Below are positions 9,489 to 12,396 of a DNA stretch of 64,000 nucleotides, piece after piece (the stretch's first letter is position 1; each line of letters begins with the position of its first letter). Made by a program: the position numbers and the translations under genes. The notes under the pieces were generated by a model, which was given only the letters and a program-made list of their open reading frames with translations, had not been told where the DNA came from and made no database searches. The stretch spans positions 384,001-448,000 of the forward strand of contig CAVTBU010000007.1 of NCBI GenBank assembly GCA_963733035.1, written 5' to 3'. This DNA comes from Pirellulales bacterium (lineage in GTDB: Bacteria; Planctomycetota; Planctomycetia; Pirellulales; PALSA-1355).

Positions 9489-9524
9489 GAGGAGGTTGAA
9501 TTCTTCGGTTTGGACCGATTGTCC

Positions 9525-9911
9525 ATGCATTGCGCCACACGCCCACGTCTGACCACGCTCATGGTATTGGCCGCCTATTTGGCCGCCCATACCCTTGGTG
9601 CGCTCTTGCACGAGCGGTTGCACGTTCATGCCGCCGGTGATGTCTGTTGTCATGCTCATGACCACAATCATGGGCACGCGTATGAGACCGAAGCCTCGAC
9701 CCCCGAAGGCAACCTGGCCTCGAAGGGAGCACTGCACGATCACGATTGTGTTGTCTGTCGAGTCACGGGTCAGCCGGTCGTTCCAGCCGTTGCGGCTGAC
9801 TTCGACATGGTCGCGGACGTTCGTCCCGACGCCCTCCCCTGCCCTGCCGCCGCGCCCCGTTCGCTCGCGGTGCGGATCGCTCAATCGCGGGCCCCTCCCC
9901 TCGCCGTCTAA
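9525..9911 (+). CDS. His-rich CxxC/RAPP upstream ORF (DUF2946/CruR-like putative ribosome-arrest leader)
   Basis: N-terminal hydrophobic segment, His tract, HDHDCVVC, and C-terminal QSRAPPLAV*. Confidence 0.75.
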   Translation: MHCATRPRLTTLMVLAAYLAAHTLGALLHERLHVHAAGDVCCHAHDHNHGHAYETEASTPEGNLASKGALHDHDCVVCRVTGQPVVPAVAADFDMVADVRPDALPCPAAAPRSLAVRIAQSRAPPLAV

Positions 9912-9996
9912 CGGCGTTTGATTGGTCACTCCGCCGGTGCTGCGCGCTTTGAGATTGCGCACCGTCGGCAACCTTTGACTAGGGAGGTACCAGGCT

Positions 9997-12396
9997 ATGG
10001 TAACCGTCCGCAAGGCGTTCAGCTATGTAGGGGCACGTCAAGTGGTGGCGATGTTTCACATCGTTGCCTCCTGGTTGGCGAGCTGGCGGGCTCGCGGAGG
10101 GCAGGCCCTACCGCAGTCGGAGCGGAGCGTGCCCGCCGGCGGCGCGTCGCCTGCCAGATTCCCATCTTCTGGCGATCTGTCCTCGAAGCAACCTCGAAGG
10201 TTCCATTCAGCTATTCGAGCTCAAGCGAACGCATCGCTGGCCCATGAGATTCAGTACGGCGAGATCGATGCCCATTCACACTCACGAGCTCACACGGCCG
10301 TTGAGGCCCTGGCCCAAAGGCTGGCTCGAGCTGTCGATCCCGATCCTGCACTTCGAGGATCCGATTTTGTTTTCTCCTCATGCCTTGGCGGGCGTGACGA
10401 GACGCGGTTGATAGGGCTGGCCTTTCAGAACCGCGGTCCACATCCAAGAGAGCAATTTGCGAGCGATGCCGACGGCGGCCGCTTTCTTGCCGGCGGAACG
10501 GCTCATCTTCAGCCACATCTTCTTGATACCGGGTTCGCAGCGGATGGCCGTCCAGGCGGCCTGCTGCAACACCCAACGCAAGTCGCGGGGTCCGGTCTTG
10601 GCGATGTGCCCTTCTCGTTGTTTGCCGCCGCTGGCGAAGACGCGCGGATGCAGTCCCGCATAGCAGGCGATCGCCTTGCGATAGGTGAAGCGACGGAAGT
10701 CGCCGACTTCGGCCAGGACTGTGGCGCTCACAATCAGGCCGACACCCGGGAAGGTTTGCAGCAGCGCGGCCGTGTCGCGGAATCGCTCGCTGGCGAGGAG
10801 GCGCCGCAACTCCATTTCGGCTTGGGCGATCTGCCGTTCGACGAGGGTCAACTGGTCGACGCACTTCCAAAGGATGGCCACATGTCGCTCGGACAGCTTT
10901 GTCTCGAAGGCCTTCAGGTAGCGAATCAAGCCATCACTCTGCAACCGCGCCGGCCCCGGACGGTTGTTGGCGTTCATGATGCTTTTGACCTGGTGCAGCA
11001 CACGAGCATGCAATCGCGAGAGCTGGTTGCGATGTCGCGTCTGGTCCTTGAGGATTTGTACTTCCAGGGGGGGTGCGTAGGCCAGCGGCAAGCGGCCGGC
11101 GGCCAGCAACTCGGCGACGTTTTGGGCGTCTTCCCGGTCGGTCTTCAGCCGTCGGCCGGCCAACGCCCGGGCGGCCGTGGCATCAGCCAAGACCAGCTTT
11201 TCGACGATCGGTTCCAGCAGGTCCCACAGCCAGCGGTAGAAGCCCACCGCCTCAATCGCGACGACTTGCGGCCGTGGCAGTGCGGCGAAGAACTCGGCAA
11301 TCTGCGCCCGACACTTACAAGCCAGTTTACGAAACGAGATTTCCCCACAACACGGACAGTAAACGCAAACGGTCAACGTGTCCTTGTGCAAATCGATGCC
11401 GACGCACCAATGGTGCGTGAGAGTTCCCATCCTCATAATCAGCCTCGCCATGTAGGGGTTTGGAATCAGCACCCAACGCGACGGCAGGATAACACCCGCC
11501 GCCGACCCCTACATGGTTTCACATTGGTTGAACTATTGGTCGTGATTGCCGTGATCGGCATCTTGGTGGGGCTGCTGTTGCCCGCGGTCCAGGCTGCCCG
11601 TGAAAGTGCGCGGCGGTCGCAGTGCCAAAACAACCTCCGCCAAATCGGCGTGGCAATGCAAAACGCGCACGGAGCCCGGGGTTCCTTTCCACCGGGATTT
11701 ATATCGCGGGCTCCGAACAAGAACGATGATGGCCTGGGGCCCGGCTGGGGTTGGGGCGCGCATTTGATGCCGTACATCGAAGAGGCAAATCTGCAAATCG
11801 ATCTGGCGCGCGAGATCATGGATCCCGTGCACGACCAGGTGCGCCAGACTCGCGTGGCCACCTATCTTTGCCCCTCGGATCCGGATCCGCCGCAAACGTT
11901 CTCGGTGGCGGATGACAGTGGCACCGAACTGACAAAAGTGGCTTTTGCCAATTATGTGGGTGTCGGCGGTACGTTCGAAGTCACGGAGTTTCCCGACACT
12001 GGCACGGGTGTCCTGTTTCGCAACCGGCGGATTCGCATCGCCGAGATCACGGACGGCACCTCCAGGACGCTAATGGTGGGCGAACGCAGCAGCCGTCGCT
12101 CGCCACAAACCACCTGGGTGGGAGCCGTCACCGGTTCGGCGATTCCACCGGTCAACCCGACGTACGATACCGAGGGGCCACCGGTGCTGGTGCTCACCAA
12201 CACCGGCGAGACCGAAGACGACCGCGTGCCGAACAATCTGCTTGACCACGTCGAGGACTCCAACAGCGAACATCCCGATGGCGTGAACTTCCTGCTCTGC
12301 GATGGATCGGTGCGAATCATCAACAACCAGATTGATCCACGCGTCTGGGCGGCACTGGGAACCCGGGCCGGCGGCGAGGAACTCGGCGAGTATTGA
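9997..12396 (+). CDS. DUF1559 prepilin-type N-terminal cleavage/methylation protein. Native gene = 9997-10020 + 11521-12396 (299 aa); now carries an in-frame 1500-bp IS110 insertion
   Basis: SD GGGAGG at 9982-9987. Rejoined N-terminus MVTVRKAF+[33 protein letters not shown]-terminal H-X9-DG motif ([12 protein letters not shown]). Confidence 0.9.
10150..10377 (-). ncRNA. Putative bridge/seek RNA of the IS110 element (boundaries approximate)
   Basis: Non-coding region downstream of the transposase with two related 21-nt units (10203-10223 and 10272-10292). Their variable cores match the element junction and the insertion target respectively. Internal stems are visible. Confidence 0.7.
10378..11436 (-). 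CDS. IS110-family DEDD recombinase/transposase
   Basis: [13 protein letters not shown] and KTDREDA (DEDD), PGVGLIVSA, catalytic-Ser motif FASGG, and ARKL. The start could be 11430, 11436 or 11451. Confidence 0.95.

Follow-up and report, generated by a model that had tools for sequence, protein, structure and literature searches.

The window, a 64,000-nt stretch of a Pirellulales contig (CAVTBU010000007.1), contains a prepilin-like gene that is interrupted by an insertion sequence coding for its transposase on the opposite strand. The main features of the locus are:

9997..12396, + strand: host DUF1559/N-methyl prepilin-like gene, split by the element (PF07596 and PF07963 on 11512-12396)
10021..11517, - strand: IS1111-type insertion sequence of 1497 nt, junctions read, with TTC on each side (10018-10020 and 11518-11520)
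10378..11436, - strand: intact gene for an IS110-family RNA-guided transposase, 352 aa from its ATG (Pfam, NCBIfam)
10025..10033, unstranded: subterminal inverted repeat, right-end copy, ATGTAGGGG on the + strand (from the junctions and homolog ends)
11506-11514: partner of this inverted repeat, CCCCTACAT

The element splits the host gene between MVTVRKAF and TLVELLVV, and on the + strand its left and right junctions read AAGGCG TTC|AGCTATGTAGGGG and CCCCTACATGGT|TTC ACATTG, respectively. The transposase combines a DEDD (RuvC-like) N-terminal domain (DEDD_Tnp_IS110, PF01548, E 3.3e-10) with a C-terminal PF02371 domain (Transposase_20, E 1.9e-25) and scores 199 bits against the NCBIfam model NF033542, 'IS110 family RNA-guided transposase' (cut-off 140); its reading frame is open from a GTG at 11472, upstream of the ATG. 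A protein search with it recovers 685 homologs at E<=1e-30. In the sections of Siddiquee et al. 2024 (PMC11187229) drawn on here, IS1111 elements are set apart by a GL-P----S(t)G motif in the C-terminal domain of the transposase, by subterminal inverted repeats of 7-17 bp and by a longer non-coding region downstream of tnp. All three are present: the C-terminal domain carries the motif, with S269 and the flanking G invariant in the homolog alignment; 9-bp subterminal inverted repeats, inset 4 and 3 nt from the element ends, are kept in homologs; and the non-coding stretch 3' of the tnp stop spans 357 nt (10021-10377) as against 81 nt (11437-11517) before the ATG. On the transposase domains and motif, the repeats and the non-coding layout, we assign the element to the IS1111 group of the IS110 family. 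The inverted-repeat core (ATGTAGGGG) occurs once more within the left end, at 11450-11458, where this third copy could form a hairpin with 11506-11514; it resembles a pseudo right end and is also kept in homologs, whose antisense peptides all read ...LHV(R/G)G....

Relatives comprise 135 loci from scans of genome and metagenome contigs and one close relative from a phylum-wide genome search. Both element ends were recovered in 103 of 137 homologous sources and are almost invariant (LE ACCATGTAGGG, RE CTACATAGCT). The family is site-specific: seen in the orientation of the element, almost every site has the form ...CTCGACGAGCGT GAA|IS|(G/A)AA ACC..., which on the host strand spells Gly/Ala-Phe|Thr-Leu-Val-Glu-Leu-Leu, and almost all of the 103 two-ended elements sit at ...ACGCTC-type Phe-Thr-Leu codons. 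Among the 69 prepilin-type sites with a readable flank, 57 have a short in-frame leader starting with ATG (e.g., MRRRPGF). For comparing guides with sites we used 76 unique element-site pairs, 14 of them at non-prepilin sites, most of which represent a second motif, RRRWF.F|SLRTLL, also N-terminal. Read in the orientation of the element, the left junction triplet is GAA in 73 of the 76 pairs, while the right one is AAA in 39 and GAA in 31. This mixture on the right, together with TTT at nine of the 23 motif sites in the element's own genome, points to the target as the apparent source of the right triplet and to the donor as that of the left, and these origins seem to constrain the position of strand crossover. 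The shared core is the 3-nt GAA; that of IS621, from the IS110 group, is CT.

Two further observations concern the insertion sites. Sister lineages retargeted to the conserved N-terminal motif M..RRRWF.F|SLRTLL (L015, L026, L057, L075, L076, L078, L079, L082, L083, L086, L088, L090, L091, L104 and L114) have guides that match it exactly, and in L026 and L114 the site lies at the Phe two codons earlier in the motif. In L024, L025, L028, L084, L098, L099 and L144 a second end-like motif adjoins the full element, suggestive of insertions in tandem or nested in one another; the left junction restores a Gly-Phe-Thr-Leu target, in agreement with this reading.

The non-coding tail downstream of the transposase gene holds two related units, CCATTCAGCTATTCGAGCTCA (10203-10223) and CCATTCACACTCACGAGCTCA (10272-10292), which the first-pass annotation had quoted with correct positions throughout. 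As it had noted, the core of unit 1, TTCAGCTAT (10206-10214), is identical to the junction at 10018-10026, and that of unit 2, TTCACACTC (10275-10283), matches the junction sequence TTCACATTG at seven of nine positions, both coding for Phe-Thr-Leu. It had further proposed that this 3' non-coding region of an IS1111-type element encodes a two-loop seek/bridge RNA, and both the element features above and the covarying fold below argue for this. The candidate RNA has the following parts:

10161..10358, - strand: predicted structured core of the seek/bridge RNA (RNAalifold, 69 homologs)
10353-10357/10193-10197, - strand: helix P1 (RNAalifold)
10327-10342/10260-10274, - strand: helix P2 (RNAalifold)
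10285-10316, - strand: helix P3 and apical stem (RNAalifold)
10257-10259/10203-10205, - strand: helix P4 (RNAalifold)
10216-10244, - strand: helix P5 and apical hairpin (RNAalifold)
10316..10321, - strand: right-target guide, RNA GCCUUU (Ala-Phe), in the 5' strand of the target loop
10275..10283, - strand: left-target guide, RNA GAGUGUGAA, in the 3' strand of the target loop
10245..10256, - strand: 5' strand of the donor loop, UACUGAAUCUCA, the place in the fold where a right-donor guide is expected
10224..10238, - strand: variable apical hairpin, upper stem of the donor loop (AGCGA/UCGCU), containing GAACGC (10227-10232)
10206..10214, - strand: left-donor guide, RNA AUAGCUGAA, in the 3' strand of the donor loop

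The fold was derived from 69 distinct tails out of 85 anchored ones, chosen for the canonical 69-nt spacing between the two guides. Its consensus has 40 pairs, of which 19 show compensatory changes; paired cells amount to 96.6% (86.1% in shuffles) and the score for covariation to 0.337 (0.149 in shuffles), with neither value reached by any of 500 shuffles, while a control in which the partners were slid gives pairing of 28-46%. The RNA displays two equivalent internal loops that hold the guides, as in seekRNAs and bridge RNAs, each with a closing helix below and UGGGCC...GAGCUCG plus an apical hairpin on top. The target loop has a 5' strand that terminates in 10316-10321 and a 3' strand formed by 10275-10283; the corresponding strands of the donor loop are 10245-10256 and 10206-10214. 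The target loop precedes the donor loop on the minus-strand RNA, an order that had been proposed from the two units and is seen in the conserved fold. Folding the whole 366-nt tail as a single sequence does no better than a shuffled sequence (z -0.44), so that the RNA structure is drawn from the alignment only. A scan of 9500-12000 against Rfam 15 gave no family above its gathering score and two chance-level matches (E 6 and 7), and a promoter and terminator scan found no sigma-70-like promoter site and one terminator-like site as compared to 1.5 expected.

The guides read from the target loop complement both target strands, overlap at the core and change with the target, as do those of seekRNAs and bridge RNAs. 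Against the + strand TTCACATTG (11518-11526), the left-target guide forms seven Watson-Crick pairs and one G.T wobble, with one end mismatch. It follows the left flank in 102 of the 103 anchored elements, and in the retargeted lineages it appears as the exact matches CAATCTGAA, GAACTGGAA, CAGCGAGAA, CAGGCTGAA and GAGACTGAA. Mutual information between RNA columns and flank positions is dominated by lineage structure, and direct pairing tests were used instead. All nine positions of the left-target guide pair, by Watson-Crick or wobble, in 28 of the 76 pairs as compared to 11.0 on shuffling, and at least eight in 62 as compared to 36.0, neither being reached in 300 shuffles; here, as in the comparisons that follow, the homologs are related, so that shuffle tests overstate independence and their counts do not equate to probabilities. 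With prepilin sites only, the six non-core positions still pair at 5.06 versus 4.76 (0 of 2000 shuffles). Position 1 is mismatched at 36 of 62 prepilin sites, which makes the effective left-target guide about 8 nt long. At the third position of the Thr codon, U is the guide base seen most often (27 of 59), with 19 wobble pairs and 15 mismatches.

On the other side of the target loop, the approximately six nucleotides directly 5' of the first UGGGCC follow the core and right flank across the homologs. This right-target guide pairs with the strand bearing GAACGC, i.e., the core and right flank; in our element GCCUUU meets GCG-TTC with four Watson-Crick pairs, one wobble and one mismatch. It is paired at all six positions in 39 of the 76 pairs as compared to 20.5 on shuffling (0 of 300 shuffles reach this), and for prepilin sites only the observed value is reached by one of 2000 shuffles. 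Long right-target matches, such as TTCCGGTT and GCCTAT, are found in the retargeted lineages. Together the two target guides spell Ala-Phe-Thr-Leu (GCC-UUY / UUC-ACA-CUC), as the first-pass annotation had read them, and the element's own site, GCG TTC ACA TTG, departs from this ideal only synonymously, with one difference covered by the G.T wobble.

The second half of the target loop had been sought elsewhere at first, by joining GAGUGUGAA to GCGUUC (10227-10232) through a GCAUCG/CGAUGC stem. GAACGC (10227-10232), GCATCG (10231-10236) and CGATGC (10266-10271) do occupy the positions assigned to them, GCGUUC is a perfect 6/6 complement of the core and right flank in this one element, and the 6-bp stem can be drawn. 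However, the guide and stem roles given to them find no support in the relatives: a perfect 6-mer complement of the core and right flank occurs between the units in two of 76 pairs versus 0.8 on shuffling (reached by 57 of 300 shuffles), and the mean best match, 4.24 versus 4.17, is reached by 297 of 2000 shuffles. GCGUUC, a match at chance level, lies in the variable apical hairpin, whose AGCGA/UCGCU stem (helix 6, alignment columns 127-131/137-141) covaries with many compensatory changes. The drawn stem falls outside the conserved fold, in which GCAUCG is part of helix P2, pairing with its 5' strand, and CGAUGC of the variable apical hairpin. Moreover, it is a different segment, 10316-10321, that covaries with the right flank. 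We consider this arrangement very improbable and take 10316-10321 as the right-target guide.

The donor loop is read from the element's own end. The left-donor guide has the same sense as the right-end tip plus core (10018-10026 on the + strand), and its first six nucleotides equal the element end in 69 of the 76 pairs. Variant guides ATAGTT (seven), ATAGCG (two) and ATAGCA (two) covary with variant ends. Of the seven mismatching pairs, three are elements with the guide ATAGCT and the end ATAGTT, and four mismatch otherwise. A search for the right-donor guide on both strands of the donor junction gave no consistent match, 32 of 69 elements having no pairing of at least 6 nt; the right donor flank hardly varies, which makes covariation unusable here, and the donor loop is hence only half explained. 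One might therefore suppose that the RNA is a target seeker only, with the transposase reading the donor ends through the subterminal repeats and the match of AUAGCUGAA being of minor import. Such a division of labor would agree with the empty-handed search for a right-donor guide, with the near-invariance of the ends and inverted repeats, and with the suggestion in the consulted part of the seekRNA paper (PMC11187229) that end recognition by IS1111 elements may differ. Yet the left-donor guide tracks the variant ends and belongs to a loop whose architecture resembles that of the target loop, and we judge the seeker-only alternative unlikely. The assignment of unit 2 as target guide and unit 1 as donor guide, made from a single sequence, is borne out by the homologs, where the former covaries with the insertion site and the latter with the element end. 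Covariation across homologs, whose lack had been named as able to overturn the reading, likewise speaks for it: three guides follow their flanks and the fold itself covaries.

The internal copies of the junction could also be DNA sites, such as transposase-binding repeats or relics of end duplication, rather than parts of an RNA. No RNA run was listed as containing the element sequence in our search of such runs, and the two units share flanks (CCATTC...CGAGCTCA) in the manner of repeated binding sites. These shared flanks, however, are strands of RNA helices that covary with 19 compensatory pairs, which a DNA site does not need; the guides vary with the target and not with the element end alone; and relatives have been found experimentally to use such RNAs, per the relevant part of PMC11187229. 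We hold a DNA-only explanation to be scarcely credible. Instead, it is in our assessment highly likely that 10021-10377 encodes, on the minus strand, a bispecific guide RNA of the seekRNA/bridge-RNA type with two structurally equivalent loops.

In the mechanism that we posit, the target loop would use the right-target guide GCCUUU of its 5' strand to pair with the strand bearing the core and right flank, and the left-target guide GAGUGUGAA of its 3' strand to pair with the left flank and core on the opposite strand. In the donor loop, the left-donor guide AUAGCUGAA would match the right tip of the element and the GAA core. The guides would thereby send the element, in circularised form, to the codon for Phe(+1) in N-terminal methylation motifs of the prepilin type, in every case antisense to the host gene. 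By analogy with published work on relatives, the RNA is expected to be made, to bind the transposase and to drive recombination.

The IS1111 seekRNAs of ISEc11, ISPa11 and ISKpn4 offer the closest precedent. As far as the sections of Siddiquee et al. 2024 (PMC11187229) used here describe them, these elements likewise have subterminal inverted repeats, a DEDD transposase carrying the GL-P----SG motif, a long non-coding region downstream of tnp and two short matches to opposite target strands. In them the two matches overlap at the point of crossover, and the one to the top strand lies 5' of the one to the bottom strand, which is the order seen here. The same sections describe REP, attC and transposon ends as targets, whereas the target here is a prepilin-like Gly/Ala-Phe|Thr-Leu coding motif; and, unlike in those systems, a second loop matching the element's own end can be read here and, in the host frame, the element has no stop codon and a length of 3n. 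The IS621 bridge RNA of the IS110 group, as presented in the consulted part of Durrant et al. 2024 (PMC11208160), also combines target-binding and donor-binding internal loops in one RNA, with left guides that pair to one strand, right guides that pair to the other, and a shared core. It differs in lying in the left end rather than the right, in the reversed order of the guides within a loop and in having a right-donor guide, for which our search found no counterpart. The same part of that paper gives a right-end bridge RNA as predicted in 93% of IS1111 elements. Our transposase is only distantly similar to that of IS621 (structures 8wt6 and others; E 3e-10, C-terminal domain only). A literature search over titles and the beginnings of abstracts returned no report of an IS110/IS1111 element targeting prepilins or of an in-frame insertion sequence. 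The guide RNA is of the known seekRNA/bridge-RNA kind, and what distinguishes the system is its target in a coding motif, its natural series of retargeting events and its in-frame design. In it, an RNA-guided element has a conserved peptide-coding motif as its target instead of intergenic repeats. With about 100 related RNA-guided recombinases whose guides are readable against their sites, including several natural retargeting events, the system also forms a natural series useful for the guide rules of the less-studied IS1111 branch, namely guide order, the 3-nt core, wobble tolerance and the missing right-donor guide.

The in-frame design emerges from the + strand, where the frame from the host ATG (9997) is open through the whole element to a stop at 12396, a total of 799 codons. 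Among 98 distinct elements, the length is divisible by three in 71, and the antisense phase in frame with the host Phe is stop-free in 70, as compared to 0 and 2 for the other phases. We defined the prepilin-targeting class as the 81 elements whose left-target guide ends in GTGAA: 65 of these are 3n long, 67 are open throughout, and the non-coding tail alone is open in 68 versus 4 and 7 in the other phases; after clustering at 80% nucleotide identity, 23 of 27 clusters are open. None of the 14 non-prepilin relatives is open, all having 2-16 stops, and, as a host background, the three codons in question are missing from 130 of 1322 gene pieces. On the host strand the left tip reads CCC CTA CAT GGT TTC, i.e., Pro-Leu-His-Gly|Phe. 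The antisense product of 499 aa matches no Pfam family. These sequence patterns suggest selection for translation through the element. An effect of GC content was considered as the source of the antisense open frame and rejected: the median number of stops in the other two antisense phases is 13-15, and the open non-coding tail, the stops in the non-prepilin relatives and the background count contradict it too.

Mobile DNA that stays silent inside genes is exemplified by IStrons and group I/II introns, which rely on RNA splicing, and by inteins, which rely on protein splicing; in-frame Rickettsia palindromic elements are another case. As with all of these, an insertion of the present kind into coding sequence need not destroy the host protein. 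We think it quite possible, while stopping short of calling it probable, that the family lives in cleaved prepilin leaders, with the read-through peptide removed by the host prepilin peptidase and the mature protein left normal. On this proposal, the element would insert exactly at Phe(+1), always antisense to its transposase gene, with its length kept a multiple of three and one antisense frame stop-free from end to end, and its left tip, ...Pro-Leu-His-Gly, would rebuild the Gly(-1)|Phe(+1) site of the prepilin peptidase. The host ribosome would read from its own start codon through approximately 500 element-encoded codons, and the peptidase would then cleave the element-encoded peptide off at the cytoplasmic face of the membrane. 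The retargeted sisters at the non-prepilin motif, with neither the 3n length nor the open frame, would be in keeping with this. Unlike introns and inteins, the element is a complete insertion sequence whose transposase lies on the opposite strand; it appears to be translated through, and its removal would be the work of the host leader peptidase and not of self-splicing. If the read-through is true, a transposon would here have a new means of remaining harmless within a gene, being removed at the protein level by a host enzyme.

The genome itself (6.6 Mb in 10 contigs) encodes Peptidase_A24 homologs and, of its 23 motif sites, five are fully compatible with the left-target guide. An element-wide DNA search finds one full copy in it, a count that by itself gives no sign of activity here, and four DNA runs that were checked yielded short low-depth contig pieces only, bridging neither a circle junction nor an empty site. 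On another contig (C8, L002:1494-1572), a 75-nt remnant occupies the same Gly-Phe|Thr-Leu position in a different prepilin-like gene. This miniature derivative joins the tip of the right end to the left end, as a deletion between ATGTAGGGG repeats would, and it is in frame and stop-free.
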